Shown: one piece after another, positions 4,115 through 39,447 of the stretch
Layout of the letters: each line of letters opens with the position of its first letter
Numbering within the stretch: the first letter of the stretch is position 1
Origin: Candidatus Delongbacteria bacterium
GTDB lineage: Bacteria > UBA4055
Assembly (NCBI GenBank): GCA_003252515.1
Contig: QKDR01000019.1
Location: 11,110 to 75,109 of the forward strand
Direction of reading: 5' to 3'
DNA: 64,000 nucleotides
Translations under genes and position numbers: made by a program
Notes under the pieces: model-generated
Told to the model about the DNA's origin: nothing
Seen by the model: only the letters and a program-made list of their open reading frames with translations
The model's database searches: none

Positions 4115-5188
4115 CTACACATATTCTATCGGTTCGATTTCCTTGTTGAGTACCATCAGACCGTTCATTGAAAGCGCTTCCATTTCATCTTCGCCGGGAT
4201 AAACGATCATAGGAGCTATCCATTCGCAGATCTCTCTCATTTTTACTATGAAAGGTTTGTTGTATGCAATACCGCCGGTGATGATGATCGCGTCGACTTT
4301 TCCCTTGAGGACTGTAGCCATCGCGCCTATGAATTTGCCGATCTGGTAAGCCATCGCGCAGTGGATCAGTTCGGCGTGCTTATCTCCCGCTTCGACCCTC
4401 TTTTCAACTTCATAAGCATCGTTCGTTCCCAGATGAGCTGCAAAACCGCCTTTTCCGGTAACCATTTTTCTCATTTCGTCTATAGTGTATTTTCCGCTGA
4501 ACGCCATAGTGATCACGTCGCCGACCGGAAGAGTTCCGCTCCTTTCGGGTGAGAACGGGCCTTCGCCGTCAATTGCCTGATTCACGTCAATAACTTTTCC
4601 TTCTCTGTGAGCTCCGATGGATATACCGCCGCCGAGGTGCGCTACTATCAGGTTCAGTTTATCGTAAGGTCTGTCGATGCTTTTTGCGTATTTTCTTGCG
4701 ACGGCTTTCTGATTCAGAGCGTGAAAAATAGATACTCTCTGGAAAAGAGGATGTCCGGATATACGGGCAAGATCATGGAATTCGTCAACTACGACAGGAT
4801 CCGCGATATATGCCTGAGCATCAGGTAAAGATTTCGCGATGTCGTCCGCGATAAGTCCGCCGAGGTTACTGGCGTGTTTTTTTTCAGCATGAATAAGATC
4901 GTGTTTCATTTTCTCATTTATCTTGAAAACACCGGAAGGAACCGGCTTTAAAATACCGCCTCTTCCTACTACTATCTTTATTTTGTCAAGATCGATCTCA
5001 GCTTCTTTAAGCTCCCGCAGGATGACTTCTTTCCTGAAATCAAACTGGTCGGTTATCTCCTTAAAGCTCGCAAGGTCTTCCACCGAATGTTTGATATTCT
5101 TGAGGAACAGAAGTTTGGTGCCGGCGTAAACCGCGATCTTCGTTGATGTCGAGCCCGGGTTTATGGCCAGTATTCTTTTTTCTTCCAT
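4115..5188 (-). CDS. buk: Butyrate (short-chain acyl) kinase, ASKHA superfamily
   Basis: 357 aa. The N-terminus ILAINPGSTSTKIAVY is the typical acetate/butyrate kinase ATP-binding motif. The length and the position immediately downstream of two ptb genes fit Buk. Confidence 0.85.
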   Translation of the reverse strand: MEEKRILAINPGSTSTKIAVYAGTKLLFLKNIKHSVEDLASFKEITDQFDFRKEVILRELKEAEIDLDKIKIVVGRGGILKPVPSGVFKINEKMKHDLIHAEKKHASNLGGLIADDIAKSLPDAQAYIADPVVVDEFHDLARISGHPLFQRVSIFHALNQKAVARKYAKSIDRPYDKLNLIVAHLGGGISIGAHREGKVIDVNQAIDGEGPFSPERSGTLPVGDVITMAFSGKYTIDEMRKMVTGKGGFAAHLGTNDAYEVEKRVEAGDKHAELIHCAMAYQIGKFIGAMATVLKGKVDAIIITGGIAYNKPFIVKMREICEWIAPMIVYPGEDEMEALSMNGLMVLNKEIEPIEYV

Positions 5189-5222
5189 TATTTTCTCCTT
5201 AATTATTATAAAATTTCAGTTA

Positions 5223-6131
5223 TTATGCCATCAGGCACGACATCGCGATGCAGTAATATTTTGACTTTTCGCTTTCGCTTCTGCTCATTACGACCACCGG
5301 TTTCTCAGTTCCCTGGATCAGTCCGCCCAATTCCGCTCCGGCAAACAGCATCAGGCCTTTATAAAAAGCGTTACACGCATCAAGAGAAGGGAAGATCAGT
5401 ATATCGGCGTCCCCGTCGACGGGAGTGTGGACACCTTTGATCTCTACGCTTTCCTTGTCACATGCCAGAAATATGTCGAGCGGGCCGTCAACGATACAGT
5501 TGTCGAGCTGTTTTCTTTCAGCCATTTTACATATAGCTGAATAATCTATCGTGTTAGGAAAATTAGGACTTACTTTTTCACTTGCACCTATAAGAGCGAC
5601 CTTAGGTCTTTCTATACCGAAAGCTCTCGCCATATTCAGACAGTATTTAATTTCGGCAAGTTTCTGTTTAAGATCCGGAAAAGGAAGTACCGCGGTATCG
5701 GAGACGAAAAGGAGTTTATGGTAAGCGGGGACCTGCATGACCGCCACATAGCTCATTATGGCTCCCGGCGGAAGAAGTCCTTTGTTCTTGTCAAGAACAG
5801 CTTTAAGAAATTCATCGGTACCGACAAGCCCTTTCATCAGAACATCAGCCTCGCCGGACTTTACCATTTCAAGGGCTTTCTCGATCGCGTTGGACGGGTG
5901 ATCGCAGTGTATTATGGTGAAAATGGAAGGATCTATTCCCTCTTCTTTAGCTCTCTGTTCGATCTTAGACTTGTTTCCGATAAGTACAGCCTCGGCAAAA
6001 CCGTCTTTTACTGCTCTTGAAATCGCTCCGATCGTGTTCTGATCCTCACCGGAAGCTACAGCGATCTTCTTTTTTATCCCTGACTTAATTACATGTTCGA
6101 CCATCTGGTCAAGAGATTTGATAGGTTCCAT
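5223..6131 (-). CDS. ptb: Phosphate butyryltransferase / phosphotransacylase (paralog 2)
   Basis: 302 aa with the phosphate acetyl/butyryl transferase fold (KGLVGTDEFLKAVL, VDGPLDIFLA, GDADILIFPSLDACN). Its start overlaps the stop of the upstream paralog by 1 nt. Confidence 0.8.
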   Translation of the reverse strand: MEPIKSLDQMVEHVIKSGIKKKIAVASGEDQNTIGAISRAVKDGFAEAVLIGNKSKIEQRAKEEGIDPSIFTIIHCDHPSNAIEKALEMVKSGEADVLMKGLVGTDEFLKAVLDKNKGLLPPGAIMSYVAVMQVPAYHKLLFVSDTAVLPFPDLKQKLAEIKYCLNMARAFGIERPKVALIGASEKVSPNFPNTIDYSAICKMAERKQLDNCIVDGPLDIFLACDKESVEIKGVHTPVDGDADILIFPSLDACNAFYKGLMLFAGAELGGLIQGTEKPVVVMSRSESEKSKYYCIAMSCLMA

Positions 6132-7069
6132 TATGCGTTCATCGCTCCGAGAGCTATCGAGTACAGTTTAGTTTTGACGCTGTCGCCTCTTGATGAAAGA
6201 ACGGCCGGTACTTTTGCGCCTACAACGATCGCTCCCAGTTCTCCGCCGCAAAGCTTTGTATGGCATTTGTAGAAAGTGTTACCCGCTTCGATATTCGGGA
6301 AAACGATGCAGTCGGCATCACCGGCGACCGGGCTCTTAAGCTTCTTTATCCCGGCGCTTTCTTTGTCGATGGCGACATCGAGTGCAAGAGGTCCGTCAAC
6401 AATCGCGCCTTTGATCTGTCCGCGGTCAGCCATCTGGGTGATAATAGCTGCATCGGTACATGAAGGATATTTATAGGAAACTTGTTCCGTGAATGAATGA
6501 ATGGCCACTTTCGGAGTTTCAATGCCAAGAGATTTCGCTACTTTGATGACATAGTTCGTTATAGCGATCTTCTGTTCAAGGTCCGGAAGAATAATCAAAG
6601 CGACATCTGACACGACCAGCAGTTTATGATATGCGGGATTTTCCAGTACTGTGACATGAGTAAGTACAGCCTTAGGAGGAGTGAGTCCTTTTTCTTTATC
6701 CAGTATAGCCTTCATGTATTTATCACTGCTGACAAGGCCTTTCATGATAAAGTCCGCTTTTCCCTCGTTCACGATCTCAACCGCTTTTCTTGTCGCGGTC
6801 ATTTCATCGCTTTCATCTACTATCTGAAATTTATTGATGTCAATATTTTCTTCTTTACAGACTTTTTCGATCTCGGTTCTGGACCCTACGAGCGTTCCCT
6901 CGATAATACCCATGTCTATCGCATGACTTACAGCATCTATAGTGTGAGCGTCATTGGCGTAAGCCGCAACCATTCTTTTTTTAGGTTTCGATTTTAGTTC
7001 TTCCAGCATCTGGTCGAGTTTTGTGATAGGCATTGTTCCCTCCAATAATAAAATTATTTCAATAGACAA
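6131..7069 (-). CDS. Phosphate butyryltransferase / phosphotransacylase (paralog 1)
   Basis: 312 aa, about 45-50% identical by eye to the downstream ptb (KGLVSSDKYMKAIL, VDGPLALDVA, GDADCIVFPNIEAGN). Confidence 0.8.
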   Translation of the reverse strand: MSIEIILLLEGTMPITKLDQMLEELKSKPKKRMVAAYANDAHTIDAVSHAIDMGIIEGTLVGSRTEIEKVCKEENIDINKFQIVDESDEMTATRKAVEIVNEGKADFIMKGLVSSDKYMKAILDKEKGLTPPKAVLTHVTVLENPAYHKLLVVSDVALIILPDLEQKIAITNYVIKVAKSLGIETPKVAIHSFTEQVSYKYPSCTDAAIITQMADRGQIKGAIVDGPLALDVAIDKESAGIKKLKSPVAGDADCIVFPNIEAGNTFYKCHTKLCGGELGAIVVGAKVPAVLSSRGDSVKTKLYSIALGAMNA

Positions 7070-8307: not shown

Positions 8308-8443
8308 AAATTCCTCCCTGTAAGGTTGTTATTAAGTAATTTAAATTAAAATCTCATAAAAGTCCATAAACATAATTCTTGAAAAAATACAGCGGTTTTA
8401 TTTTAGAAAAAACCATATAACCAAATATTTGTATATTTATATC

Positions 8444-8472
8444 TTGCAATAAATCGAAAATTTACATAAATT
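8444..8472 (+). promoter_or_regulatory. Candidate sigma70-like promoter for the hdr-frd-suc-fum-mae operon
   Basis: TTGCAA, 17 nt, TAAATT lies in the AT-rich divergent intergenic region 8308-8536. The assignment is weak and by eye only. Confidence 0.3.
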
Positions 8473-8536
8473 CATATTTTTAATACTGAAGCACATCTTT
8501 TTTAACAATGTAAATTAAAATAGAACGGGTAATCAG

Positions 8537-10921
8537 ATGAGTAAAACCGGAGTATTTCTCTGCCAGTGCGGAGGTAACATCTCGAACACGATTGATCTTG
8601 AAAAGGTTACAGAAGATGTTAAGAAAAGATACGGCGATGATGTTGAGGTTAAGATTTTCTCACACATGTGTTCCGGCGCAGGTCAGAAGCTTATAAAGGA
8701 CGATATTGAAGCTCAGGGGCTCGACAGAGTGGTCGTTGCGGCATGTTCTCCGCAGTTCCATGAGAAGACCTTTAAGGGAGTAATGGAAAAAAGTGGCCTG
8801 AACCCTCATGTTCTTGAGATCGCGAATTTGAGAGAGCATATTTCCTGGACGCACAAGGACAAACCTGAGATCGCAACGGAAAAAGCGAAAGACATTGTCA
8901 GTGCTTCGGTCTCGAAAGTAAAACTCGACGAACCTCTCTTCCCGAAAACGATGAAACTTGGTGACAGAGTGCTTATAATAGGAGGCGGTATCGCAGGTAT
9001 ACAGACAGCCCTCGACCTGGCCGACTCGGGCAAAAAAGTAACGCTGGTCGAGAAACTGCCCACTATCGGCGGGAAAATGGCCGTTCTTACAAAGACCTTT
9101 CCTACTGAGGATTGTTCGGCATGTATAATCTCACCGAAGATGTCAGATGTTCAGGACCATCCGAACATAACTCTTTATACTAATTCGGATATCACCGACA
9201 TTCAGGGGCACAGACTTCATTTCAAAGCAACGATAAAGAACAAAGCCCGTTATATAAAAGACACGATAGATATGGACCAGTGCCTTTCATGCGAGAAATG
9301 CGTACAGGTATGTCCGGTTACCGTAAGAAACTACTGGGAGCAGGGCGTCATAAACAGAAAGGCCGTTTATATCCCTGCGGCCCTTGCAATACCATTCAGA
9401 TATACGGTCGATCCTGATGCATGCCTGAACTTCAAGGGCGAGACCTGCAATAAATGTGTGGAGATTTGTCCGCAGCAGGTGATCGATCTGACGCAGAAGG
9501 ACGAAGTGATCGAGGAAGTGTTCGATTCGATCGTAGTCGCAACCGGATTCGATCTATATGACGCGACGGAAAAGCCTGTCTTCGGATACGGCAAATACAA
9601 AAATGTAGTAACAGCGCTCGAGATGGAGAGGATAGTCGACCATATTAGCGAGGATCAGCCGCCGAGAGAGGTCGGGAACAGAGTGGCGTTCATACAGTGC
9701 GTGGGTTCAAGGGACGAACAGATCGGCAGAGAGTACTGTTCAAGGGTATGCTGCATGTACTCGGTCAAACTCGCTTCACTTTTAAAACAGGCGAAACCGG
9801 AAACGGATATTTATATTTTCTATACGGACCTCAGAGCTTTCGGAAAAGGTTTCGAGGAATATTATAAAAGAGCTCAGAAGATGGGAATTAAGTTCGTTAG
9901 GGGAAAACCTTCGCATTTCGCCGAGAATCCGTTCACGAAACAGGTTACTGTCAATGTAGAGGATACGCTTTCCAGAGATGTTATTGAGACCGATTTCGAT
10001 CTGGTCGTCCTTGCGAACGGTATCGGACTCAGCAAGGCTACGGATCCGATAGTTAATTTCCTGAAACTCGCGAAAAGCGAGGACGGTTTCCTAAAAGAGG
10101 CCCATCCGAAATATAAACCTGTAGATACGCTGATAGAGGGTGTTTTCATCGCCGGAACGGCGCAGGGACCGAAAGATATTCCTGACACTGTCGCTCAGGC
10201 GAGTGCTGCGGCATCTAGGGTTATGGTGACGCTTGCTCAAAAGGAATTCAAGATCGATCCTATACTGGCCTTTGTAAACCAGGAAAAATGCGACGGATGC
10301 AAACTCTGTCTGACGAACTGCCCGAAGAACGCGGTCCGGATGAATGATAGCGGCAAAGCGGAAGTCGAGGAGGCGCTCTGTCTTGGATGCGGGTCGTGCA
10401 TAGCAAGCTGCCCGACCGAAGCGCTGGACCTTTACGCGTACACTTCCGATCAGCTGTATGCCGCAATAGAAGCGATCTTCGCGAACAAAAAAGAAGATGA
10501 GAACAGGGTCCTCGTTTTTGCAGATGACAGCTGCACTTACCGTGTCGCCGATGCTCTGGGTGTCAGGAAGATGAAATACTCGACCGACGTAAGGATAATC
10601 AGAGTGCCTTCAAGCGGAAGGGTTACCCCGAGCCTGATGATGTACGCGATGAAGAAAGGCGCCGACGCGATCCTGATCGGGGACTGCGAGAAAGACAAGC
10701 TTAGAGTATCATGGACGAGCGAAATATGCAGAAAGAGCATTGACGCGGCTAAGAAGATACTGGCTGATGCGGGTGTAGACGGCGAAAGGATATATTTTGA
10801 CGAATTCACGGCAGGATCACTCGCAAAATTTGTTGACAGGGTTAACGGCATAGCCGAATCCGTCACAAAGATGAAAAAGATCACTTCTGATATAAGGGAG
10901 GAATTATGTCAAAGAAAATAA
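8537..10921 (+). CDS. hdrA: Heterodisulfide reductase subunit A-like flavoprotein fused to a C-terminal MvhD-like domain
   Basis: 794 aa with an FAD GxGxxG motif (IIGGGIAGIQTALDLA). HdrA-specific Cys motifs are present: DCSACII, CVGSRDE and CSRVCCMY. Four ferredoxin-type CxxCxxCxxxCP motifs follow (CLSCEKCVQVCP, CNKCVEICP, CDGCKLCLTNCP, CLGCGSCIASCP). The C-terminal ~140 aa resemble MvhD (VLVFADDSC...RVPSSGR...GADAILIGDC). Confidence 0.8.
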   Translation: MSKTGVFLCQCGGNISNTIDLEKVTEDVKKRYGDDVEVKIFSHMCSGAGQKLIKDDIEAQGLDRVVVAACSPQFHEKTFKGVMEKSGLNPHVLEIANLREHISWTHKDKPEIATEKAKDIVSASVSKVKLDEPLFPKTMKLGDRVLIIGGGIAGIQTALDLADSGKKVTLVEKLPTIGGKMAVLTKTFPTEDCSACIISPKMSDVQDHPNITLYTNSDITDIQGHRLHFKATIKNKARYIKDTIDMDQCLSCEKCVQVCPVTVRNYWEQGVINRKAVYIPAALAIPFRYTVDPDACLNFKGETCNKCVEICPQQVIDLTQKDEVIEEVFDSIVVATGFDLYDATEKPVFGYGKYKNVVTALEMERIVDHISEDQPPREVGNRVAFIQCVGSRDEQIGREYCSRVCCMYSVKLASLLKQAKPETDIYIFYTDLRAFGKGFEEYYKRAQKMGIKFVRGKPSHFAENPFTKQVTVNVEDTLSRDVIETDFDLVVLANGIGLSKATDPIVNFLKLAKSEDGFLKEAHPKYKPVDTLIEGVFIAGTAQGPKDIPDTVAQASAAASRVMVTLAQKEFKIDPILAFVNQEKCDGCKLCLTNCPKNAVRMNDSGKAEVEEALCLGCGSCIASCPTEALDLYAYTSDQLYAAIEAIFANKKEDENRVLVFADDSCTYRVADALGVRKMKYSTDVRIIRVPSSGRVTPSLMMYAMKKGADAILIGDCEKDKLRVSWTSEICRKSIDAAKKILADAGVDGERIYFDEFTAGSLAKFVDRVNGIAESVTKMKKITSDIREELCQRK

Positions 10922-11310
10922 AACTTACCGATAAGGGCGTCGAATTTCTGAAAAAAGTTCAGGAGCTCAGCGGAGAGATCATCACTCTGTGCGAACAGTG
11001 CGGGACCTGTACAGGCGGCTGTCCGTACGTGGATCAGATGGATATAACTCCTTCACAGATAATGAGAAAAACCATGCTGGGTCAGACGGACGTTCTGGAT
11101 TCGCAGACCATGTGGATATGCGCCTCATGCTTTACCTGTACGGTCAGGTGTCCGAGAATGTTAGACGTTTCAAAAGTCTCCGAAGCCCTCCGACAGGTTA
11201 AACTGAGAGAAGCGGTGGACAAGATCAATATAGACGGCATATCAGACGAGGACGCGAAAGAGCTTCCTTCAATTGCGGTAGTTTCCGCATTCAGAAAATT
11301 TACAGGTTAA
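10906..11310 (+). CDS. hdrC: HdrC-like subunit with two [4Fe-4S] clusters
   Basis: 134 aa with two cluster motifs, CEQCGTCTGGCP and CASCFTCTVRCP. It overlaps the hdrA stop by 16 nt, which indicates translational coupling. Confidence 0.7.
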   Translation: MSKKIKLTDKGVEFLKKVQELSGEIITLCEQCGTCTGGCPYVDQMDITPSQIMRKTMLGQTDVLDSQTMWICASCFTCTVRCPRMLDVSKVSEALRQVKLREAVDKINIDGISDEDAKELPSIAVVSAFRKFTG

Positions 11311-11333
11311 TTTAAATTTCAGGATATAGTAAA

Positions 11334-12236
11334 ATGAAAAAAAATATAAAAATATCCTATTTCCCCGGCTGTACTCTGAAAACTACCGCGAAGAACTTTG
11401 AAAGGTCCGCAGTTAAAGCAGGAGGGCTGATAGGTATAGAAATGGTCGAACTGTCGAAATGGAACTGCTGTGGCGTCGTCACCTCGCTCACAAGCGACGA
11501 TCTCATGAAGCACGTGGCACCGATAAGGAATTTTGTTCGCGCCGAAGAGATGAAAGATCAGGGACTGGTCAACGACAGCAGGATGCTCATTCTCTGCTCC
11601 ATGTGCTTCAACACAATGAAAAGAAGTAACAAAAGAGTAAGAGAGAACGCAGAAGACCTAAAATCTATAAACGATTTCATGTATCTGGAGAAAGATTATA
11701 ACGGATCCGTAGGTGTGGTCCACTATCTGGAACTTATGGCTGAGATCGGTTTCGATAATATTGCCGGAAAGATCAAAAAACAGCTGAAAGGTCTTAAGAT
11801 CGCCCCTTATTACGGGTGTATGCTTCTCAGACCGAAAGACATCGGTATAGATGACGCGGAAGCTCCTCACATTATAGAGGACTTCATAGGATCGGTAGGC
11901 GCCGAATCCGTCGGCTGGGACGCAAAAAGCAGATGTTGCGGAAGTTACCATACGGTCAACAACAAGGACATTGTGGTAAATCTGGCTAAAGGGATCATCG
12001 AGAACGCGAGACTTCACGGTGCGGAAGCTCTTATAACATCATGCCCGCTTTGCGCTTTCAATCTCGATAACAGGCAGAAACTAATAATGGAGAAAGATCC
12101 GAATTTCAGACCGATGCCGGTATTCTATTTTACTCAGCTTCTCGCTCTTGCGCTGGGACTCGGGGAAGAAGATATCGGGCTGGAAGGGAATTTCATTGAT
12201 ACCAAACCGCTTCTGAAAGAAAAAAATTTAATATAA
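11334..12236 (+). CDS. hdrB: HdrB-like subunit with two CCG Cys-rich domains
   Basis: 300 aa with duplicated CCG domains: YFPGCTL...NCCGV and YYGCMLLRP...RCCGS...CPLCAFN. Confidence 0.8.
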   Translation: MKKNIKISYFPGCTLKTTAKNFERSAVKAGGLIGIEMVELSKWNCCGVVTSLTSDDLMKHVAPIRNFVRAEEMKDQGLVNDSRMLILCSMCFNTMKRSNKRVRENAEDLKSINDFMYLEKDYNGSVGVVHYLELMAEIGFDNIAGKIKKQLKGLKIAPYYGCMLLRPKDIGIDDAEAPHIIEDFIGSVGAESVGWDAKSRCCGSYHTVNNKDIVVNLAKGIIENARLHGAEALITSCPLCAFNLDNRQKLIMEKDPNFRPMPVFYFTQLLALALGLGEEDIGLEGNFIDTKPLLKEKNLI

Positions 12237-12250
12237 TAACGGGAGTAATT

Positions 12251-12937
12251 ATGTCAGATACTCAAAAGATGGTCAGGGTGTATATCATGGGCGAAGCCTA
12301 CATGGTTCCCGAAAGCTCGACTATCATAATGGCTTTCGAGTATGCCGGTTTCCAGCTTAAGAAAGGGGTCGGATGCCGTGAGGGATACTGCGGAGCCTGT
12401 GCAACGGTCTATCGCGAAAAAGGCGACTATAAACTTAAAGGCGGGCTCGGATGTCAGACGGTCGTTTCGGAAGGAATGTATATAGCTCAGATACCTTTCG
12501 TACCTGCTGATAAACCTAAATACGATATCAATGAACTGGCTCCTGACGTATCAACGTTCATGGAACTTTATCCGAGTGTCTTCAGGTGCGTGTCGTGCAA
12601 TACATGTACCAAAGCCTGTCCTCAGGATATTCAGGTCATGGATTACGTTCAGGCAATAATCAAAGGAGATATAGCTAAATCGGCCCAGTTGTCGTTCGAC
12701 TGTATCAGATGCGGTCTGTGCGCTCTCAGATGTCCGGCGGAGATAGTTCAGTTCAACGTCGCGATCCTGGCTCAAAGACTCTACGGAAAATATCTTTCTC
12801 CCAAGAACGAGCAGCTTGACAACAGGGTAAAGGAGGTCGAGGAAGGCAAGTACGACGGAGAGATAAAGAAAATGATGAACATGGAAAAGAGGGAATTGAC
12901 TGACATGTATTTCGGACGCGAGATCAAGATATCGTAA
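12251..12937 (+). CDS. Succinate dehydrogenase/fumarate reductase iron-sulfur subunit-like protein ([2Fe-2S] plus two [4Fe-4S])
   Basis: 228 aa. The N-terminal [2Fe-2S] ferredoxin fold is CREGYCGACA....GC. Two CxxCxxCxxxCP motifs follow (CVSCNTCTKACP, CIRCGLCALRCP). Confidence 0.75.
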   Translation: MSDTQKMVRVYIMGEAYMVPESSTIIMAFEYAGFQLKKGVGCREGYCGACATVYREKGDYKLKGGLGCQTVVSEGMYIAQIPFVPADKPKYDINELAPDVSTFMELYPSVFRCVSCNTCTKACPQDIQVMDYVQAIIKGDIAKSAQLSFDCIRCGLCALRCPAEIVQFNVAILAQRLYGKYLSPKNEQLDNRVKEVEEGKYDGEIKKMMNMEKRELTDMYFGREIKIS

Positions 12938-12963
12938 TAAAGACCAATTTTAAGGAGTAAAAA

Positions 12964-14634
12964 ATGTATCCTGAATATATGATGGAATCAATAAGGAAAG
13001 TTGAAGCGACCAGAGGTGAAAGGCTTGAACTTGTCCGTAAAAAAGGTAAAATGATCTATCCCGGGATGAGCGAGCAGGAAAGGAAAGAAGTTCTTGATAA
13101 TTTTCACCCCGATTACAAATCCGATGCCAGAAGGAAGGTCAAAGTCGGTCCGGATAAAGATCTGATAATGACGACAGAGATAGCAGATATGTTAGAATCG
13201 TATTCGAGGATCGACATAAAAAAATTCGACCTGACAAAGCCTGATTTCGAGACCGATGTCTTCGTGATCGGAGCAGGGTCCGCCGGGATGTCGGCCGCGC
13301 TCGTGGCGTCCGAGAACGGAGCGGACGTTCTTCTCGCGACAAAGCTGAGGCTCGGGGACGCGAACTCCATGATGGCTCAGGGCGGTATTCAGGCGGCGGA
13401 CGCAAAAGACGACTCCCCGGCGATCCACTATCTTGACGTGATCGGCGGAGGGCATTTCGACAACAAGCCCGAACTGGTGGAGGCTCTCGTGAATGATGCT
13501 CCCAAGTCGATAAAATGGCTTGAAGAGCTCGGAGTAATGTTCGACAAGGAAAAAGACGGCAGGATGACCGTGAAATCCGGCGGCGGTACAAGCAGGAACA
13601 GAATGCATTCGGCAAGAGACTATACCGGTGCGGCTATCTGCAAGGTTATCAGGGATGAAGTCTACAACAGAATGGACAAGATCAAATATTTAGAGTATAC
13701 TGCTGCAGTCGAACTCATACTGAACGAAAAGAAAGAAGTGGCGGGGGCTGTTATTTATCACCTTGAAACCAAGCAGTATTCAATTGTAAAAGCAAAATCT
13801 GTGATCATCGCTACCGGTGGGTTCGGAAGACTGCACATCAGAGGTTACGAAACGACCAATCACTATGGAGCGACTGCGGACGGACTTATTATGGCTTACA
13901 GAGCAGGCGCGAACCTGCTGTATATGGACTCTGTACAGTACCACCCGACAGGCGCTGTTTATCCTGAGCAGATCGTAGGATTCCTATGTACCGAGAAGAT
14001 CAGAGGTCTTGGCGCTCAACCTGTCAACAAGGACGGCGAACTGTTCGTATATCCGCTTGAACCGAGAGATATCGAAGCGTCGGCTTTTATCAGAGAATGC
14101 GAGAAAGGTAAGGGAATTAAAACACCTTCCGGGCTTCATGGGATCTGGCTTGACACACCTCTGATCGAGCAGATAAGCGGTGAAGGAACCATAGAGAAAG
14201 CTCTCCCCGCCATGCTCAGGCAGTACGAAAGATTCGATATTGACATAAGGAAATATCCTATGCTTGTTTATCCGACTCTGCATTATCAGAATGGCGGTAT
14301 AGAGATCAACGCTAAAAGCGAATCGAAGATACCGGGACTGTATGTTGCGGGAGAAGCTACAGGCGGAGTTCACGGACGGAACAGACTGATGGGCAACTCT
14401 CAGCTTGACATTATCGTATTCGGCAAAAGAGCAGGCTACTATGCTTCAGAAAGATCGAAAGGGATCAAAGACGCAGGCAAACTCTCTCTTGAACACGTGA
14501 CCGCATACAATAAGGAAGTAGAAGCCCTCGGTATCGAAAAGAGCAAAATAGCTCCTATAATACTGCCGGATTACATTCCTGACCATGTAAAAGCGAAACA
14601 GCTCGTGAACGAATATAACGGAACTCTTATATAA
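12964..14634 (+). CDS. Fumarate reductase/succinate dehydrogenase flavoprotein subunit-like protein (FAD)
   Basis: 556 aa with FAD dinucleotide binding (VFVIGAGSAGMSAALVA...SMMAQGGIQAA) and the FrdA/SdhA catalytic region (HYGATADG..., YHPTG, RGLGA). By-eye alignment to E. coli FrdA places Asn/Ser where the covalent-FAD histidine sits. Confidence 0.8.
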   Translation: MYPEYMMESIRKVEATRGERLELVRKKGKMIYPGMSEQERKEVLDNFHPDYKSDARRKVKVGPDKDLIMTTEIADMLESYSRIDIKKFDLTKPDFETDVFVIGAGSAGMSAALVASENGADVLLATKLRLGDANSMMAQGGIQAADAKDDSPAIHYLDVIGGGHFDNKPELVEALVNDAPKSIKWLEELGVMFDKEKDGRMTVKSGGGTSRNRMHSARDYTGAAICKVIRDEVYNRMDKIKYLEYTAAVELILNEKKEVAGAVIYHLETKQYSIVKAKSVIIATGGFGRLHIRGYETTNHYGATADGLIMAYRAGANLLYMDSVQYHPTGAVYPEQIVGFLCTEKIRGLGAQPVNKDGELFVYPLEPRDIEASAFIRECEKGKGIKTPSGLHGIWLDTPLIEQISGEGTIEKALPAMLRQYERFDIDIRKYPMLVYPTLHYQNGGIEINAKSESKIPGLYVAGEATGGVHGRNRLMGNSQLDIIVFGKRAGYYASERSKGIKDAGKLSLEHVTAYNKEVEALGIEKSKIAPIILPDYIPDHVKAKQLVNEYNGTLI

Positions 14635-14656
14635 AGAAAATATAAGCAGGTGAATT

Positions 14657-15832
14657 ATGAAGATCCATGAATATCAGGCAAAAGAGCTTTTTGTCAGGTA
14701 CGGCATTCCCGTTCCGCCGGGAAAAATGACAGACAATCCTGAACAGGCGTCGGAAGCCGCGAAGTCGATCGGCGGAGGAATATGGGCGGTCAAAGCCCAG
14801 ATTCACGCAGGCGGCAGAGGCAAGGGCGGCGGAGTCAGACTGGCAAAAAGTCTCACTGAGGTAAACGAGCACGCAAAAGCGATCCTCGGGATGAACCTTG
14901 TCACCGCACAGACCGGTCCGGAAGGACAGCCGGTCAGAAAAATATATATCGAAGGCGGTGTAGATATTGCCAGAGAGTTTTATCTCGGTATGATACTCGA
15001 CAGATCCGCAGAGATGCCTGTAATGATGCTGTCGTCCGAAGGCGGGATGGAGATCGAGAAAGTAGCCGCCGAATCTCCCGAGAAGATAATAAAGATCTAT
15101 GTTGATCCGCTTTTCGGACTGAAGAAGTTCCAGATACTTGAAGCCGGTTACAAACTGGGGCTTCATAAAGACGATATAAAAGAACTGTATGTGTTCGCGA
15201 AAGGTCTCTATGATCTTTATACCGGGCTGGATGCGAGTATAGTCGAGATAAACCCTCTGGTGCTTACCAAAGAAGGTCGGTTCATTGCGCTGGACGCTAA
15301 AATCGTGTTCGATGATAATGCATTGTTCAGACATAATGAAGTGGTTGAAATGAGAGATTTTTCTGAAGAGGAACCCGCGGAGACAGAAGCAGGTAAATAC
15401 GGGCTGAGTTATGTTAAACTTGACGGTAATGTCGGGTGTATGGTGAACGGAGCAGGACTTGCAATGACCACAATGGACGTGATAAAGCTGGTTGGAGGAG
15501 AACCTGCCAATTTTCTTGATGTCGGAGGCAACGCAAGTGCAAAAACTGTAGCCAAAGGGTTCGAGATTATACTTAATGATCCTAACGTCAAGGTGATCTT
15601 CGTTAATATTTTCGGAGGTATCGTCAGATGCGACAGGATAGCGAACGGAATTCTTGAGGCGATAGGAGGTACCGGAATAAATATCCCGATAATAGTAAGG
15701 CTGGACGGTACTAACGCCCCGGAGGCTCTGGAGATACTGAAAAAGGCAGGTAATCCAAATATTATTACATCGGACAGACTGTCAGCAGGTGCAAAACTTG
15801 CTGTTCAGGTAGCTGCGGGAGGTGAAAAATGA
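14657..15832 (+). CDS. sucC: Succinyl-CoA synthetase (ADP-forming) beta subunit
   Basis: 391 aa. The canonical SucC N-terminus is [20 protein letters not shown], followed by an ATP-grasp fold. It overlaps sucD by 4 nt. Confidence 0.95.
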
Positions 15833-16707
15833 GCATATTGGTAGGCAGCGGATCAAAAGTTATCGTGCAGGGATTTACCGGGAAAGAAGGCACTTTTCAC
15901 GCTCAGCAATGTATTGAATACGGTACGAACATCGTGGGCGGCGTAACGCCCGGAAAAGGCGGTGAACACCATCTCGACAGGAAAGTGTTCAATACTGTAA
16001 AAGATGCTGTCGCTGAAACCGGAGCGGACGTATCTCTTATCTTCGTCCCGCCGTCTTCAGGCGGTGAGGCTATTATCGAGGCCGCATATGCCGGGATAAA
16101 GATAATAGTCTGCATAACGGAAGGTATTCCCGTGCTGGATGTATTGAAAGCGAAAAAATACGCAGAAATGAAAGGCGCAAGGCTTATAGGACCGAACTGT
16201 CCGGGTATAATTACACCGGAAGAAGCTAAAATAGGTATTATGCCGGGAAATATTTTCAGGAAAGGCAGAGTGGGGCTGATATCCAAATCGGGCACTTTGA
16301 CATACGAGGCGGCAAATCAGATCGTCAAGGCGGGTTTCGGAATTTCGACCGCTATCGGAATAGGCGGAGATCAGATAATCGGAACTACATTTATCGACGC
16401 GCTTAAACTTTTCAAAGAAGACGATAAAACTAAGGCTGTAGTACTTATAGGTGAGATCGGTGGTGATCTTGAGATACAGGCCGCTGAATATATAAAAAAG
16501 GAATTCAACAAACCTGTGATGGCTTTTATAGCCGGACAGACAGCTCCGAAAGGTAAAAGGATGGGACATGCCGGAGCGATCATAGCCAGTTCGAAAGGTA
16601 CCGCTGAAGAAAAAATAAAAGCTCTCAGGAACGCCGGTGTCGCGGTATGCGATATACCCGAGTGTTTCGGCGAACTTTTAAAGAAGGAGTTCGAAGGAAT
16701 AGCTTAA
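15829..16707 (+). CDS. sucD: Succinyl-CoA synthetase alpha subunit
   Basis: 292 aa with the CoA-binding N-terminus [15 protein letters not shown]. The phospho-His loop (GHAGAII) is present. Confidence 0.95.
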
Positions 16708-16719
16708 AACGGAGGGACT

Positions 16720-17565
16720 ATGAGAGAAATACATACTGACGACATAATATCCTCGGTAAAAAAACTCAGTATAGAAGCCAACTATTATCTCAGTGAAGAC
16801 GTGATCCGAAGAATAGAGTATCTAAAAGAAAAAGAGGAATCGGGAACGGCTGTCGAAGTCCTGAACATACTACTTGAGAATTATAAAATGGCCGCGAAGG
16901 AGAAGATGCCGATCTGTCAGGATACGGGTATTGCTGTCGTATTCCTCGAGATAGGTCAGGATGTACATATTATCGGCGGGGACCTGACCGAGGCCATAAA
17001 CGAGGGCGTCAGACAGGGTTATAAGAACGGCTATCTCAGGAAGTCTATGGTTGACGATCCGATAGTCGACCGCAAGAACACGACCGACAACACTCCTGCT
17101 ATAATCTATACCGACATCGTTCCCGGTGACAAAATGAAGATCACTCTCGCTCCGAAAGGCGGCGGCTCCGAAAACATGAGCGAAGTTAAGATGATGAAGG
17201 CTGCCGACGGCATAGAAGGCGTGATAAGCTTCGTTGTCGACAGGATAAAAAGATCGGGCGGCAATCCGTGTCCGCCGATTGTTGTAGGTGTTGGTCTCGG
17301 CGGCAATTTTGAACAGAGCGCCCTGCTCGCCAAGAAGTCTCTTCTCAGAAACCTCGACGAACCTAATCCTGATCCTAAATGGGAAAAGGTCGAGAACGAA
17401 ATACTCGAGAAAATAAATAAACTCGGCATCGGTCCGCAGGGACTGGGCGGAAGAACAACAGCCCTTGCCGTTCATATACTAACGAAACCTTGTCATATTG
17501 CGTCAATGCCGGTAGCCGTGAACGTCCAGTGCCACGCGGCAAGACATAAATCCGTAATATTGTAA
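16720..17565 (+). CDS. Fe-S hydro-lyase alpha subunit (class I fumarate hydratase / tartrate dehydratase alpha type)
   Basis: 281 aa. CQDTGIAVVFLEIGQD is the characteristic FumA/TtdA N-terminal catalytic motif. Confidence 0.85.
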   Translation: MREIHTDDIISSVKKLSIEANYYLSEDVIRRIEYLKEKEESGTAVEVLNILLENYKMAAKEKMPICQDTGIAVVFLEIGQDVHIIGGDLTEAINEGVRQGYKNGYLRKSMVDDPIVDRKNTTDNTPAIIYTDIVPGDKMKITLAPKGGGSENMSEVKMMKAADGIEGVISFVVDRIKRSGGNPCPPIVVGVGLGGNFEQSALLAKKSLLRNLDEPNPDPKWEKVENEILEKINKLGIGPQGLGGRTTALAVHILTKPCHIASMPVAVNVQCHAARHKSVIL

Positions 17566-17577
17566 CCGGAGGGAAAT

Positions 17578-18132
17578 ATGCCTAAAACAGTTTATCTTAA
17601 AACACCGTTGAAAAGCAGTGACCTTACCGGGCTCGAGATAGGCGACAAGGTCTTTATTACGGGAACGGTCTATACCGCCAGAGACGCGGCTCACAAGAGG
17701 CTTGTTCAGCTTTTGGAAAAAGGGGAAAAACTGCCTTTTGATCCTCATGGTCAGATCATATATTATGTCGGACCTGCGCCTACTCCTCCCGGAAAAGCGA
17801 TAGGATCGGCGGGACCGACAACAAGCTACAGGATGGACCCTTATGCTCCGGCTCTCATGGATGCAGGTATCAAGGCTATGATCGGTAAAGGCGAAAGGAG
17901 TAAAGCAGTAATTGATTCGATGATAAAGAATCAGGCTGTTTATCTCGCAGCTATAGGCGGAGCGGCTGTCGTTATATCTGAATCGATAAAAAAATCAGAA
18001 ATAATAGCATATGAAGATCTGGGCGCGGAAGCAATAAGGAAGCTTGAGGTGGAGAATTTCCCCTGCATAGTCGCGAACGATGTTAAAGGAAACGATATCT
18101 TTATCGAGGGCGTAAAGAAGTATAAAAGATGA
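17578..18132 (+). CDS. Fe-S hydro-lyase beta subunit (class I fumarate hydratase beta type)
   Basis: 184 aa resembling the FumA C-terminal/TtdB domain (GTVYTARDAAHKRL..., GKGERS). It pairs with the upstream alpha subunit. Confidence 0.85.
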   Translation: MPKTVYLKTPLKSSDLTGLEIGDKVFITGTVYTARDAAHKRLVQLLEKGEKLPFDPHGQIIYYVGPAPTPPGKAIGSAGPTTSYRMDPYAPALMDAGIKAMIGKGERSKAVIDSMIKNQAVYLAAIGGAAVVISESIKKSEIIAYEDLGAEAIRKLEVENFPCIVANDVKGNDIFIEGVKKYKR

Positions 18133-18168
18133 AGCTTATGAAATATAAATAAACAGCGGGAGTAAAAA

Positions 18169-19623
18169 ATGGAAAAGATCAAAATGGACCTGTCAAATCT
18201 GAATAAAGTATTTCCTGATGATTTTACGCAGGAACAGATCGCGAAAGCGAAGACAGCTTTCCTGAAAAGACTTTCAGAAACCGCGCATAAATTCTACGGC
18301 GGAAAGATACAGACAGTACCGAAAGCCGGCGTTTTCGGGTTCAACTGGTTCAACGTATGGTATACTCCCGGTGTATCTAAAGTGTCAACCGACATAAGAG
18401 ATAACAACGACGTTTCTTTTGAATTGAGCAACAGAGGTAACCTGGTCGGCGTGGTCAGCGATTCTACAAGGGTTCTCGGAGACGGGGACTGTACTCCTTC
18501 CGGTGGACTCGGAGTAATGGAAGGTAAAGCGTTCTTAATGAAATATCTCGGAGGGGTCGACGCCGTGGCTCTCTGCGTTGACAGTAAAGGTAAGGACGGC
18601 AGGAACGATCCAGACAAGATCATAGAGTTCGTTAAAATGGTTCAGCACAGCTTCGGAGCGATAAACCTCGAAGATATTTCCCAGCCGAACTGCTTTAAAG
18701 TACTTGACGTCCTCCGTGAAGAATGCGACATTCCAGTCTGGCACGATGATGCTCAGGGAACCGCAAGCGTAACACTCGCGGGACTTCTGAATGCACTTAA
18801 GCTGGTAAAAAAAGATATTAAAGACGTTAAAATAGTACTCCTCGGAGCCGGCGCTTCGAACACAACGATAGCAAGGCTGATCATTACTGACGGAGCCGAT
18901 CCGGGAAACCTGATAATCTTCGACTCCAGAGGATCGCTCAACAAAAGCAGAGAGGACATCAAAGCGGATACCCGTTTCTACAGGAAGTGGGAACTCTGCG
19001 AGACCACGAACAAAGATCAGGTGACCGAAATCGCTGAAGCAATGAAAGGTTCTGATGTACTGATCGCGCTGTCAACTCCGGGTCCGGATACTGTAAAAAA
19101 GGAATGGATATCGGTCATGGCCGAAAAATCTATCGTATTCACATGTGCGAATCCCGTTCCGGAGATATATCCGTACGCCGCAAAAGAAGCCGGAGCCTAT
19201 ATCGTGGCGACAGGAAGAGGCGACTTCCCGAACCAGGTCAACAACTCGATAGGATTTCCGGGAATACTTAAAGGTGCTCTGATGGTCAGGGCGAAAAAGA
19301 TCACCGACAATATGGCTATAGCTGCAGCTCATTCACTGGCGGACTATGCAGAAAAAAGAGGTATCGATCCCGAGAATATCGTTCCGACAATGGATGAAGC
19401 GGAAGTCTTCCCTGTCGAAGCTGCCGATGTGGCAATGCAGGCAATCAGGGACGGTGTTGCAAGGATCAACATTACATGGGAAGAAGCTTTCAGTAAAGCA
19501 AAACAGGATATCGAATATTCCAGAAGCATGACAAAAACGCTGATGGATACCGGATATATCAAAACGCCGGAAGAAACCATGCTCCAGGAAGCGCTTGACT
19601 TCGCTATATCTCAGGTAAGGTAA
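18169..19623 (+). CDS. NAD(P)-dependent malic enzyme (malate dehydrogenase, oxaloacetate-decarboxylating)
   Basis: 484 aa with the malic-enzyme N-terminal domain (VWYTPGVS, VSDSTRVLGDGD) and a Rossmann fold (LLGAGASNTTIARLI). Confidence 0.85.
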   Translation: MEKIKMDLSNLNKVFPDDFTQEQIAKAKTAFLKRLSETAHKFYGGKIQTVPKAGVFGFNWFNVWYTPGVSKVSTDIRDNNDVSFELSNRGNLVGVVSDSTRVLGDGDCTPSGGLGVMEGKAFLMKYLGGVDAVALCVDSKGKDGRNDPDKIIEFVKMVQHSFGAINLEDISQPNCFKVLDVLREECDIPVWHDDAQGTASVTLAGLLNALKLVKKDIKDVKIVLLGAGASNTTIARLIITDGADPGNLIIFDSRGSLNKSREDIKADTRFYRKWELCETTNKDQVTEIAEAMKGSDVLIALSTPGPDTVKKEWISVMAEKSIVFTCANPVPEIYPYAAKEAGAYIVATGRGDFPNQVNNSIGFPGILKGALMVRAKKITDNMAIAAAHSLADYAEKRGIDPENIVPTMDEAEVFPVEAADVAMQAIRDGVARINITWEEAFSKAKQDIEYSRSMTKTLMDTGYIKTPEETMLQEALDFAISQVR

Positions 19624-19649: not shown

Positions 19650-19679
19650 GATCAGCAGCTTTTATTGCTGATCTTTTTT
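19650..19679. terminator. Rho-independent terminator hairpin between the convergent malic-enzyme and DTW genes
   Basis: GATCAGCA-GCTTTTAT-TGCTGATC (8-bp stem) followed by TTTTTT. Confidence 0.6.
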
Positions 19680-20322
19680 AAAGTCTGCCATTATGAGTCT
19701 TGAAACTGTCGACTATTTTACGGAATATTCTGTACATCTCGTTTACGACAAGGCCGTTCTCGAGAATCTCAATTGCGTTGATTACAGCTTCGATAGTGGA
19801 TACTTTTTCAGGATCTTTTGAATCTCTCAGTTCATACTCGCCTTTCTGACCAGAAGGAAGTCTGACCCTTTTTATCCCCGCAAGCAGTTCCGATCTTGTC
19901 ATTTTCACGGCCTGATGGTAGTTCCCGTCCGGAACGATCAGATTGATCGGCTTATTCAGTCTGGAAATGAAGTTGTCATCGAGTACGTTCGAAGCGTGGG
20001 GGAAGAGCACGAGGTTTTCATATCCATCCATAATTACATCGCTTTCGGTAACATTCCCGTTAGGCGCACCTATGATAACTGTCTTCGAGTTCGTGAGCAT
20101 TAATTCCGCTATTTTACCGGTGTTGGTTGAGCGGGCGAACTCTTTAACGTGCATCAGAAGAGTGACTCGCGTTCTGAGGTCAAACTTGGTAATATCACGG
20201 CATATGCAGATACTTGTGAAAAGTCTGCAGACCGGACATTTTTTCGATACTCTTCTGCTGTGCGACAAAAATGCTCCTGATAATTTACCGGCAAATATAG
20301 CGCATTTCAAATAATGCCGCAA
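19678..20322 (-). CDS. DTW-domain protein (tRNA aminocarboxypropyltransferase-like)
   Basis: 214 aa. The N-terminal CPVCRLFTSICIC is a C-x2-C-x6-C-x-C motif, and the DG(N/T)(Y/W) region VPDGNYHQA fits the DTW family. Confidence 0.55.
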   Translation of the reverse strand: MRHYLKCAIFAGKLSGAFLSHSRRVSKKCPVCRLFTSICICRDITKFDLRTRVTLLMHVKEFARSTNTGKIAELMLTNSKTVIIGAPNGNVTESDVIMDGYENLVLFPHASNVLDDNFISRLNKPINLIVPDGNYHQAVKMTRSELLAGIKRVRLPSGQKGEYELRDSKDPEKVSTIEAVINAIEILENGLVVNEMYRIFRKIVDSFKTHNGRL

Positions 20323-39365: not shown

Positions 39366-39447
39366 GCGGGTATGGTGGAACTGGCAGACACGCCAGACTT
39401 AGGATCTGGTGCCTTTCGGTGTGGGGGTTCAAATCCCTCTATCCGCA
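39366..39447 (+). tRNA. tRNA-Leu (anticodon UAG)
   Basis: Hand-folded cloverleaf: acceptor stem GCGGGTA/TATCCGC, a GTGGAACTGGCAGAC D-arm and anticodon arm CCAGA-CTTAGGA-TCTGG (anticodon TAG). A long variable arm marks it as class II, and the T-arm is GGGGG-TTCAAAT-CCCTC. CCA is not encoded. Confidence 0.8.

Follow-up and report, generated by a model that had tools for sequence, protein, structure and literature searches.

A ten-gene operon of a Candidatus Delongbacteria bacterium is predicted to encode a soluble fumarate reductase linked to a heterodisulfide reductase-type module

Results

Gene content and boundaries of the operon

In the 64,000-nt stretch of DNA analyzed here (Candidatus Delongbacteria bacterium, GenBank assembly GCA_003252515.1, contig QKDR01000019.1, positions 11,110 to 75,109 of the forward strand; hereafter the window, in whose own numbering all coordinates are given), ten open reading frames (ORFs) are tightly packed on the + strand at 8537-19623, all in the same direction, with spacers of 12-36 nt and two overlaps of 16 and 4 nt. 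The first five are redox genes spanning 6.1 kb (8537-14634), which encode an HdrA with a fused MvhD-like C-terminal domain, an HdrC-like protein, an HdrB-like protein, an iron-sulfur (Fe-S) subunit, and a flavoprotein of the succinate dehydrogenase/fumarate reductase (Sdh/Frd) superfamily; genes for succinyl-CoA synthetase, class I fumarase, and malic enzyme follow. From the genes present, their cofactor motifs, the clade placement, and the conserved synteny documented below, we favor, on balance, a soluble fumarate reductase linked to a heterodisulfide reductase (Hdr) module, of which the complex, electron path, donor, and direction are what we infer, and for which direct ferredoxin:fumarate reduction would be the simplest mode. 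An earlier sequence-only reading of this DNA had described a co-directional operon of eleven genes; the tight co-directional cluster was borne out but the gene count came to ten ORFs, because MvhD is the C-terminal domain within the HdrA ORF and has no separate gene.

The operon is preceded by an AT-rich intergenic spacer of 229 nt (8308..8536, + strand), taken from sequence reading as the presumed promoter region. No sigma-70-like site was found in this spacer at the scan threshold; the promoter previously placed at 8444 (TTGCAA-17-TAAATT) fits 8/12 consensus positions by our own count, lies under that threshold, and was not reported by the scan. There is also no obvious Shine-Dalgarno sequence ahead of hdrA. 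At the 3′-end, the terminator scan found an intrinsic-terminator-like stem-loop of 9 bp followed by a T-run (19650..19680, + strand; stem-loop plus T-run also given as 19650-19673), in agreement with the terminator read earlier at 19650. Rfam and tRNA scans detected no RNA element in the operon, the sole such feature of the window being a tRNA-Leu at 39366, and none of the ten operon proteins has a transmembrane-like segment.

The closest named relatives are Ca. Delongbacteria metagenome-assembled genomes (MAGs), and the identical ten-gene order was found in two Delongbacteria MAGs (loci L002 and L003), the flanks of which differ from those of the window except for a DTW-domain gene. As this gene (19678-20322, − strand in the window; 11621-12238 in the syntenic L003; 57% identity) is the only flank gene in common, the ten-gene block is the conserved unit.

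An HdrACB module with a Cys-depleted MvhD-like tail

The first ORF (8537..10921, + strand) encodes an HdrA2-like HdrA of 794 residues, as identified by Pfam, NCBIfam, and structure alignment. Residues 3-648 match the methanogen HdrA structures (8rvu, 5odc) with 662 bits, and the protein comprises a TrxR-like flavin adenine dinucleotide (FAD) domain, an N-terminal domain, and ferredoxin domains that are either inserted or C-terminal, with four CxxCxxCxxxCP motifs together with CVGSRDE and CSRVCCMY. Its best NCBIfam model was HdrA2, that is, the HdrA-MvhD fusion type, and the methanogen-type equivalog cut-offs were missed by HdrA2, HdrB, and HdrC alike (875/1100, 161/345, and 70/160 bits, respectively). 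The diagnostic motifs that had been ascribed to HdrA, HdrC, and HdrB were confirmed, with all domain calls upheld by Pfam and NCBIfam.

Residues 653-779 of HdrA form the MvhD-like tail (10493..10873, + strand; PF02662, 6e-29). When aligned to M. wolfeii MvhD (5odc_D), the tail keeps 2/5 conserved Cys (D-C-S-C-L), so that the MvhD tail claimed earlier is recognizable as a domain but lacks most of the conserved Cys. All five of them (CxxC, C, C, C) are retained in every free-standing MvhD of the related loci described below, and some fused-type relatives have 0/5 left in the tail. Judged from these positions, the tail of the window HdrA probably carries no [2Fe-2S] cluster. The fused HdrA lineage, to which the window HdrA belongs, is monophyletic (100/100 bootstraps). 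Tandem hdrA genes were observed in three loci (L045, L046, and L049), where an HdrA of ~800 residues with a Cys-free MvhD-like tail stands beside a 654-residue HdrA and an intact MvhD.

The HdrC-like protein (10906..11310, + strand; Pfam and NCBIfam) has 134 residues and two CxxCxxCxxxCP motifs for 2x [4Fe-4S]; its match to chain 7bkb_C (191 residues) covers residues 18-118 of that chain, leaving the methanogen C-terminal ~60 residues unmatched. The following ORF (11334..12236, + strand) encodes an HdrB / SdhE-like CCG protein of 300 residues with PF02754 x2, in which both CCG motifs are complete, with ten Cys in total (C13, C45/46, C88, C91; C162, C201/202, C237, C240). It aligns full length to HdrB structures (2e-38) and scores nearly equally as HdrB (TIGR03288, 161 bits) and as SdhE of methylmenaquinol:fumarate reductase (MFR; 154 bits), which indicates that CCG proteins have a precedent as partners of SdhAB.

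A divergent Fe-S subunit and a flavoprotein of a distinct clade

Pfam, NCBIfam, and motif reading identified the fourth ORF (12251..12937, + strand) as an Fe-S subunit of 228 residues. It contains the SdhB-type [2Fe-2S] motif CREGYCGAC...C plus two complete CxxCxxCxxxCP motifs, which predict one [2Fe-2S] and two [4Fe-4S] clusters, and the [3Fe-4S] motif (CxxxxxCxxxCP) of complex II SdhB is absent from it. In type E SdhB, a second [4Fe-4S] cluster replaces the [3Fe-4S] cluster. The match of the window subunit to SdhB is weak, and neither Pfam nor NCBIfam found a CCG domain in it. Compared with TfrB of methanogen thiol:fumarate reductase (Tfr), which holds one [2Fe-2S], two [4Fe-4S], and two CCG in one polypeptide, the window has separate proteins, three of which match successive TfrB regions weakly (25-31 bits), with the CCG domains sitting in HdrB.

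The fifth ORF (12964..14634, + strand) encodes a flavoprotein of 556 residues which, from PF00890 and tree placement, is predicted to be a fumarate reductase catalytic subunit of a distinct clade within the Sdh/Frd superfamily. PF00890 covers residues 98-479; the PF02910 C-terminal domain was not detected in this protein, and its C-terminus is ~100 residues shorter than that of complex II. All NCBIfam scores were below cut-off, including TfrA (NF004900; 328/718), SdhA/FrdA (~290), and NadB (281). Thus, the earlier description of the pair as SdhA/SdhB-like holds at the level of the superfamily but understates its divergence.

To compare the active sites, the flavoprotein was aligned with E. coli FrdA, SdhA, and NadB plus 22 representatives drawn from an exhaustive search. 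Residues equivalent to FrdA H232, R287, H355, and R390 are invariant in the alignment, and those equivalent to T244/E245 fall inside a conserved CTEK motif of the flavoprotein. The covalent-FAD His (FrdA His44) is Asn in the entire flavoprotein clade, and the NadB-specific Glu121 is Gly in the window protein. In a neighbor-joining tree (434 columns, 100 bootstraps), the window flavoprotein grouped with other N-extended proteins and with some short ones of 400 residues in a clade of 99% support, set apart from NadB (100%), from FrdA/SdhA, and from the group of P0192, a true TfrA equivalog (765 bits) that is 39% identical to the window flavoprotein and has Gly at FrdA His44; this last group also takes in actinobacterial Sdh1-like proteins. 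By this placement, the flavoprotein is judged not to be an orthologue of TfrA or FrdA.

Several databases call homologues of this flavoprotein ‘L-aspartate oxidase’, and together with the sub-cut-off NCBIfam scores this could suggest an L-aspartate oxidase or another enoate reductase whose clustering with C4 genes is coincidental. Against this, NadB formed its own clade with P0199 (100% bootstrap) and the clade of the window was separate, all tested fumarate-site residues are conserved in addition to the Glu121 to Gly change, and fumarase and SucCD are co-operonic with the flavoprotein across phyla; we therefore consider such a non-fumarate enzyme scarcely credible. A grouping with NadB, which the sequence-only reading had named as fatal to its fumarate reductase call, was thus not what the tree returned. 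NadB identity itself was rejected on tree placement and the Glu121 position.

The first 95 residues of the flavoprotein (12964..13248, + strand; defined by alignment) are an N-terminal extension with many invariant positions among 53 homologues. No counterpart of it was found in E. coli FrdA, SdhA, and NadB (unaligned) or in TfrA, and the NCBIfam TfrA match begins at residue 95. An AlphaFold2 model of the flavoprotein (pLDDT 75.8) had SdhA and FrdA as its top Foldseek matches in the PDB and NadB at rank 37; this search upheld the Sdh/Frd flavoprotein fold, did not discriminate between subfamilies, and gave nothing on the N-terminal extension. A natural fusion of an Fe-S subunit and a flavoprotein was found in P0122 (727 residues), the Fe-S part of which is 32% identical over 215 residues. 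An unexpected host of a 40%-identical member of the N-extended clade was Prochlorococcus sp. MIT 1201 (WP_413360575.1; P0128/P0392).

The Fe-S/flavoprotein pair recurs with different electron-input modules

Relatives of the flavoprotein were scanned in one genome per species, which gave 395 stretches, and the best 80 loci (62-82% identity), all from MAGs or single-cell assemblies, were analyzed by calling ORFs and comparing these with the proteins of the window and with neighbor families that recur. These loci are assigned to Delongbacteria, Cloacimonadota, Neomarinimicrobiota, Fidelibacterota, Spirochaetes, Sumerlaeota, Aminicenantes, Myxococcales, and Armatimonadota. The Fe-S gene lies immediately 5′ of the flavoprotein gene in 71/72 loci, and hdr genes are present in 57/80 loci from several phyla, so the hdr-frd linkage does recur among relatives, as the sequence-only reading had proposed to check. 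Among the 33 well-flanked loci (≥6 kb upstream and ≥3 kb downstream), 27 have hdr, 14 have mvhGA, and 13 have the genes of 2-oxoglutarate:ferredoxin oxidoreductase (OGOR; korDABG), with SucCD, fumarase, or malic enzyme in 24. A recurrent membrane protein family was not found among the neighbors of the 80 loci; with the five redox genes conserved as a unit and their proteins free of hydrophobic segments, the earlier statement that no SdhC/D or other anchor is present was upheld for the operon.

Three layouts were distinguished. Type 1, that of the window and found in sixteen loci, consists of an ~800-residue HdrA with fused tail, HdrC, HdrB, the Fe-S protein, and the flavoprotein. Type 2 begins with HdrC, HdrB, an ~650-residue HdrA, and MvhD, and ends with MvhG, MvhA, and a maturation protease; korDABG often comes ahead of it, and the Fe-S protein and then the flavoprotein are encoded in between, so that this pair is placed between mvhD and mvhGA (for example L008, L049, L052, L063, L065, L071, and L077); L049, with a flavoprotein 70% identical to that of the window, has the order KorABG-HdrC-HdrB-HdrA-HdrA-MvhD-FeS-Flav-MvhG-MvhA. 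In type 3, hdr is absent within 5 kb, as seen in 11 of the 53 loci with enough upstream DNA to be informative; examples are the Fe-S, flavoprotein, and malic enzyme genes on large Cloacimonadales contigs and the order KorABG-epimerase-FeS-Flav-SucCD-Fum. A four-gene core HdrC-HdrB-FeS-Flav was further found in L066, L067, and L076. With respect to the hydrogenase and OGOR genes, no mvhGA was found in the sequenced parts of the sixteen type 1 loci, and tblastn with representatives of MvhA, MvhG, KorA, KorB, and KorG gave no match in the 64-kb window.

Outside these layouts, a metagenome contig (L085, 9354-12877) carries the Fe-S/flavoprotein core of a 44% branch, followed by a NuoF-like gene (Complex1_51K) and korAB, and adjoined by two mdh genes and citrate synthase. 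This locus is of gammaproteobacterial symbiont type, and its flavoprotein, on a deeper branch of the clade, has the same sequence as one named for the Ridgeia piscesae endosymbiont. By its gene content, the cluster may specify an enzyme that depends on NADH. Taken together, the Fe-S/flavoprotein pair forms a conserved core to which Hdr+Mvh, fused-HdrA, or NuoF-like electron-input modules are joined.

Additional genes were observed around some of these clusters. In six loci (L022, L054, L058, L059, L060, and L064), GlcD/GlcF-like oxidase genes (FAD and Fe-S) and another mvhD follow the flavoprotein gene, and this insertion precedes mvhGA wherever mvhGA is present. A TPR protein of ~240-275 residues lies beside the cluster in 18 loci and a DsrE-like protein in two, neither of them being in the operon of the window; in L024, L027, and L029 such extra proteins lie between fumB and hdrA.

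The conserved order also bears on whether Hdr and the fumarate reductase are two enzymes communicating, as in methanogens, through a diffusible thiol/disulfide, with a Tfr-like enzyme oxidizing thiols and Hdr re-reducing the disulfide. Such a shuttle would draw on the two complete CCG motifs of HdrB, the disulfide-reducing site of methanogen Hdr, and on TfrA being the top NCBIfam match of the flavoprotein. However, the Fe-S subunit without a CCG domain has no thiol-oxidizing site, there is one CCG protein only, and the conserved hdrC-hdrB-FeS-Flav order together with the position of the pair between mvhD and mvhGA favors one complex. To our knowledge, these bacterial phyla make neither coenzyme M (CoM) nor coenzyme B (CoB), which counts further against a shuttle that we regard as very improbable.

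The remaining genes encode a C4 branch

The last five genes of the operon, all on the + strand, encode the beta subunit of succinyl-CoA synthetase (SucC, 391 residues; 14657..15832; NF001913, 561 bits against a cut-off of 370), its alpha subunit (SucD, 292 residues; 15829..16707; NF004230, 429 bits against 336), the alpha (281 residues; 16720..17565; NF004885, 416 bits against 276; PF05681) and beta (184 residues; 17578..18132; NF005310, 272 bits against 238; PF05683) subunits of class I (Fe-S) fumarate hydratase, and a malic enzyme (484 residues; 18169..19623; PF00390 and PF03949). In many relatives, the malic enzyme gene is directly 3′ of the flavoprotein gene. The operon would thus provide a reductive C4 branch running from pyruvate and CO2 through malate, fumarate, and succinate to succinyl-CoA, which could then go to propionate, to 2-oxoglutarate/glutamate synthesis, or to both. 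The propionate-pathway segment that had been read here is a compatible fate, but 2-oxoglutarate synthesis by OGOR fits equally, and OGOR genes lie beside the cluster in many relatives.

Elsewhere in the window, one further gene typical of the methylmalonyl-CoA pathway was found, and no more than that one: it encodes a stand-alone carboxyltransferase (37680-39218, − strand; PF01039, 616 bits) resembling methylmalonyl-CoA decarboxylase alpha / propionyl-CoA carboxylase beta, methylmalonyl-CoA mutase and epimerase not being found in the window. Upstream of the operon on the opposite strand (4115-7069, − strand) are two tandem phosphate acetyl/butyryl-transferase paralogues followed by an acetate/butyrate-kinase-like gene, which could turn propionyl- or butyryl-CoA into the acid with a gain of ATP. 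Glutamate dehydrogenase and peptidases are also encoded in the window. The carboxyltransferase, the phosphotransacylases and kinase, the glutamate dehydrogenase, and the peptidases fit an amino-acid/sugar fermenter that makes propionate and/or 2-oxoglutarate.

A candidate electron path from ferredoxin to fumarate

In the scheme that we favor, the first five genes would encode one cytoplasmic complex without a membrane anchor. One complex is favored because the Fe-S/flavoprotein pair sits between mvhD and mvhGA in many sister loci, and the near-constant adjacency of the pair and its natural fusion in P0122 support a single unit. The Fe-S protein and the flavoprotein would be the counterparts of the N-terminal TfrB half and of TfrA, the separate HdrB, with HdrC, would supply the CCG module that methanogens have as part of TfrB, and HdrA and HdrC would continue the wire as far as the flavin of HdrA and the domains of HdrA that interact with ferredoxin. 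Electrons would accordingly move from the FAD/[4Fe-4S] of HdrA through HdrC, the non-cubane clusters of HdrB, and the Fe-S subunit to the non-covalent FAD of the flavoprotein, where fumarate would be reduced to succinate, and a diffusible thiol/disulfide would presumably not be needed. The donor would be reduced ferredoxin, acting at HdrA; it is the simplest candidate because the MvhD-like tail has lost most of its ligands and no hydrogenase gene lies nearby. Ferredoxin as a direct donor has been shown for HdrA2B2C2, with heterodisulfide as the acceptor (PMC5296606).

Several points weigh against this scheme. Both the physical complex and its activity are predictions from sequence and synteny. 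The 11/53 informative loci that have no hdr within 5 kb mean that the Fe-S/flavoprotein core can use other partners, for example the NuoF-like gene in L085, and a donor module encoded elsewhere in the genome is possible. HdrA retains every feature of a bifurcating HdrA, and HdrB has a complete disulfide-reductase site, so a thiol cofactor is conceivable. Moreover, by our own calculation from E0′ values, passing electrons from ferredoxin (~−450 mV) directly to fumarate (+33 mV) would waste ~90 kJ/mol, which makes a coupled, bifurcating mode attractive and a serious rival.

Such a true flavin-based electron-bifurcating fumarate reductase would use fumarate in place of heterodisulfide as the high-potential acceptor: a mid-potential two-electron donor at the HdrA flavin would send one electron downhill via HdrCB and the Fe-S subunit to fumarate and the other uphill to ferredoxin. 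Candidate donors would be formate, a hydride carrier binding directly to HdrA, H2 if MvhAG is encoded at another site, or NADH if a Flx- or NuoF-like module takes part, and in the lineage of the window the donor would have to bind without the MvhD [2Fe-2S] wire. This mode is suggested by an HdrA that is full length and similar to bifurcating methanogen HdrA, by the many sister clusters that encode intact MvhD and MvhGA around the pair with OGOR adjacent as a consumer of reduced ferredoxin, and by thermodynamics better than those with heterodisulfide, and it has been proposed before (PMC6315080, PMC11636981, PMC8542988). For the window, however, the MvhD tail is short of 3/5 conserved Cys, the window lacks mvhGA as well as flx and fdh (and, as noted, no mvhGA in the sequenced parts of the type 1 loci), and Pfam and NCBIfam found no NAD(P)H-binding domain in the five redox proteins. 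We thus hold bifurcation here to be possible but doubtful. The bifurcation put forward by the sequence-only reading is not established for the window variant, with its Cys-depleted tail and no hydrogenase gene, and the analogy to MvhADG-HdrABC drawn alongside it fits the sister clusters with intact mvhD and mvhGA but not the window. For the type 2 clusters, a reduction of fumarate and ferredoxin driven by H2, as in Mvh-Hdr, is well motivated by synteny.

As for direction, the complex would most likely run reductively. Succinate oxidation requires a covalent flavin link, which raises the FAD potential from ~−145 to −55 mV, and complex II variants without the covalent-FAD ligand reduce fumarate and cannot oxidize succinate (PMC5773532); the reductive direction is favored because the clade of the window is without this His, and also because relatives place the enzyme beside OGOR, a consumer of succinyl-CoA and reduced ferredoxin. 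In the opposite, confurcating direction, oxidation of succinate to fumarate would be pulled by the co-oxidation of reduced ferredoxin in syntrophic propionate oxidation. The reactions of SucCD, fumarase, and malic enzyme can run both ways and would suit an oxidative methylmalonyl-CoA route, the carboxyltransferase gene lies in the window, and Cloacimonadota, for which a canonical succinate dehydrogenase is reported missing, have been linked to syntrophic propionate oxidation. Nevertheless, we consider this succinate-oxidizing mode, which had also been entertained for the locus, improbable: besides the covalent-FAD ligand, replaced by Asn throughout the clade, the C-terminal domain is absent, a third redox partner is not encoded for the window variant, and the sister clusters pair the enzyme with a group-3c-type Mvh hydrogenase and OGOR in a reductive layout. 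By our own estimate from standard potentials, the mean succinate/ferredoxin potential of ~−210 mV would in addition lie well above that for reduction of NAD+ or H+ unless H2 were extremely low.

Other genes in the window

Two overlapping ORFs on the + strand (58395-58931 and 58837-59931), matching the lipid II flippase MurJ (PF03023 profile positions 2-123 and 129-431), make murJ look split, apparently from a frameshift or assembly error. At 30352-32490 (− strand), a 712-residue protein has many ankyrin repeats fused to a metallo-beta-lactamase-fold domain, which is unusual for a bacterium. A protein with a Por_Secre_tail (type IX secretion sorting) domain is encoded at 28513-29229 (+ strand) and a 2090-residue SprA-like protein at 45825-52097 (+ strand); both point to an organism of the FCB superphylum, in agreement with the Delongbacteria relatives and the missing Shine-Dalgarno sequence.

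Discussion

As a rule, fumarate is reduced in respiration by enzymes that are bound to the membrane and linked to quinones. If the proposed enzyme is real, a soluble, Hdr-wired reductase would mean that quinone-free fermenters and autotrophs using the reductive tricarboxylic acid (rTCA) cycle have another way of exploiting or saving the large amount of free energy released on passing electrons to fumarate, in phyla including Cloacimonadota, Marinimicrobia, Delongbacteria, and Aminicenantes. It would also settle the succinate/fumarate step in abundant uncultured groups, for which Cloacimonadota papers, for instance, read the region as rTCA, as an mmc-like propionate-oxidation cluster, or with succinate dehydrogenase missing. 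Should the enzyme bifurcate, it would represent a new class of bifurcating enzyme through which quinone-less anaerobes save energy as reduced ferredoxin for Rnf or OGOR. The compact operon is suited to heterologous expression.

Literature searches turned up genomic and transcriptomic proposals only, in line with the earlier statement that no bacterial Hdr-Frd complex has been characterized biochemically; the Hdr-‘Tfr’ linkage and the bifurcation idea themselves, however, were already published from genomes between 2016 and 2026, so their novelty had been overstated. In large sulfur bacteria, a frdA/sdhA gene was described next to hdrA and mvhD genes (PMC4914600, 2016). In tubeworm symbionts and Thioflavicoccus, tfrAB is interspersed with flxABCD-hdrABC and korABCD, and direct electron delivery was proposed (PMC6315080, 2019); this symbiont model was later backed by co-expression of the cluster, with the tfrAB genes themselves the stated exception (PMC11636981, 2024). 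Ca. Celaenobacter has TFR, OGOR, fumarase, succinyl-CoA synthetase, Mvh, and Hdr in a single cluster (PMC8542988, 2021), an Hdr-linked ‘thiol:fumarate reductase’ cluster was reported from genomes of Bipolaricaulia (10.1101/2023.11.26.568696), and the idea of a bifurcating complex was summarized in a 2026 survey (PMC13147460). What is added here is a distinct flavoprotein clade, with non-covalent FAD predicted from its residues, the use of one Fe-S/flavoprotein core in a modular way with at least three electron-input modules, and an apparent decay, judged from the aligned Cys positions, of the MvhD cluster site in the lineage of the window.

Compared with known systems, complex II (SdhABCD/FrdABCD) has the His-FAD ligand, PF02910, and membrane anchors, and the window operon is without all three. 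Type E succinate:quinone reductase and MFR (SdhABE) resemble the window in having a CCG HdrB-like partner of an SdhAB-type pair, but these enzymes are quinone-linked, membrane-associated, and in some cases succinate-oxidizing, whereas the window adds HdrA and HdrC and is without the covalent-FAD ligand. Two soluble relatives have been characterized, methanogen TfrAB and the five-subunit fumarate reductase of Hydrogenobacter thermophilus (Miura et al., 2008, as cited in PMC13147460 and PMC10052474). The latter is, like the predicted window enzyme, soluble, multi-subunit, and without a membrane anchor; it is irreversible, serves a reductive TCA branch, and has A/B subunits that work with extra Fe-S and flavin subunits, but it takes electrons from NADH through a dedicated subunit and its genes are scattered, in contrast to the operon-encoded window proteins, in which no NAD(P)H-binding domain was found.

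Methanogen Tfr serves the reductive branch to succinyl-CoA and 2-oxoglutarate. The window shares with TfrAB (Heim et al., 1998, as cited in PMC8542988) a soluble flavoprotein without the covalent-FAD His, motifs for one [2Fe-2S] and two [4Fe-4S], and CCG chemistry. The two differ in that the window flavoprotein, 39% identical, belongs to another clade, with an N-terminal extension and without the C-terminal domain, and in that the Fe-S and CCG halves of TfrB, fused in methanogens, are separate proteins in the window, where CoM/CoB are not expected. HdrA, HdrB, and HdrC of the window are homologous to those of methanogen MvhADG-HdrABC (5odc, 8rvu), in contrast to the lost ligands of its MvhD. 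The HdrA-MvhD fusion is shared with M. acetivorans HdrA2B2C2 (PMC5296606), on whose HdrA2 model the window HdrA scores best though below the cut-off; therein, reduced ferredoxin donates directly via HdrA2, HdrC, and HdrB to a high-potential acceptor, which is CoM-S-S-CoB, with F420H2 as the mid-potential donor (PMC5296606). The MvhD domain of HdrA2 has been reported with a [2Fe-2S] cluster, whereas the window tail is without most ligands.

Among the published Hdr-TFR clusters, the symbiont ‘tfrAB’ is likened to the window by its gene neighborhood. These published clusters carry MvhADG or FlxABCD input plus OGOR, whereas the window has neither and has a fused, Cys-depleted MvhD. The Cloacimonadota cluster (PMC8542988) has, like the window, the same Fe-S/flavoprotein family beside hdrABC, fumarase, and succinyl-CoA synthetase: locus L049 of our set comes from Ca. 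Celaenobacter antarcticus MAG_3300025698_8, which that paper lists under this identifier, and its protein belongs to the same family as that of the window.

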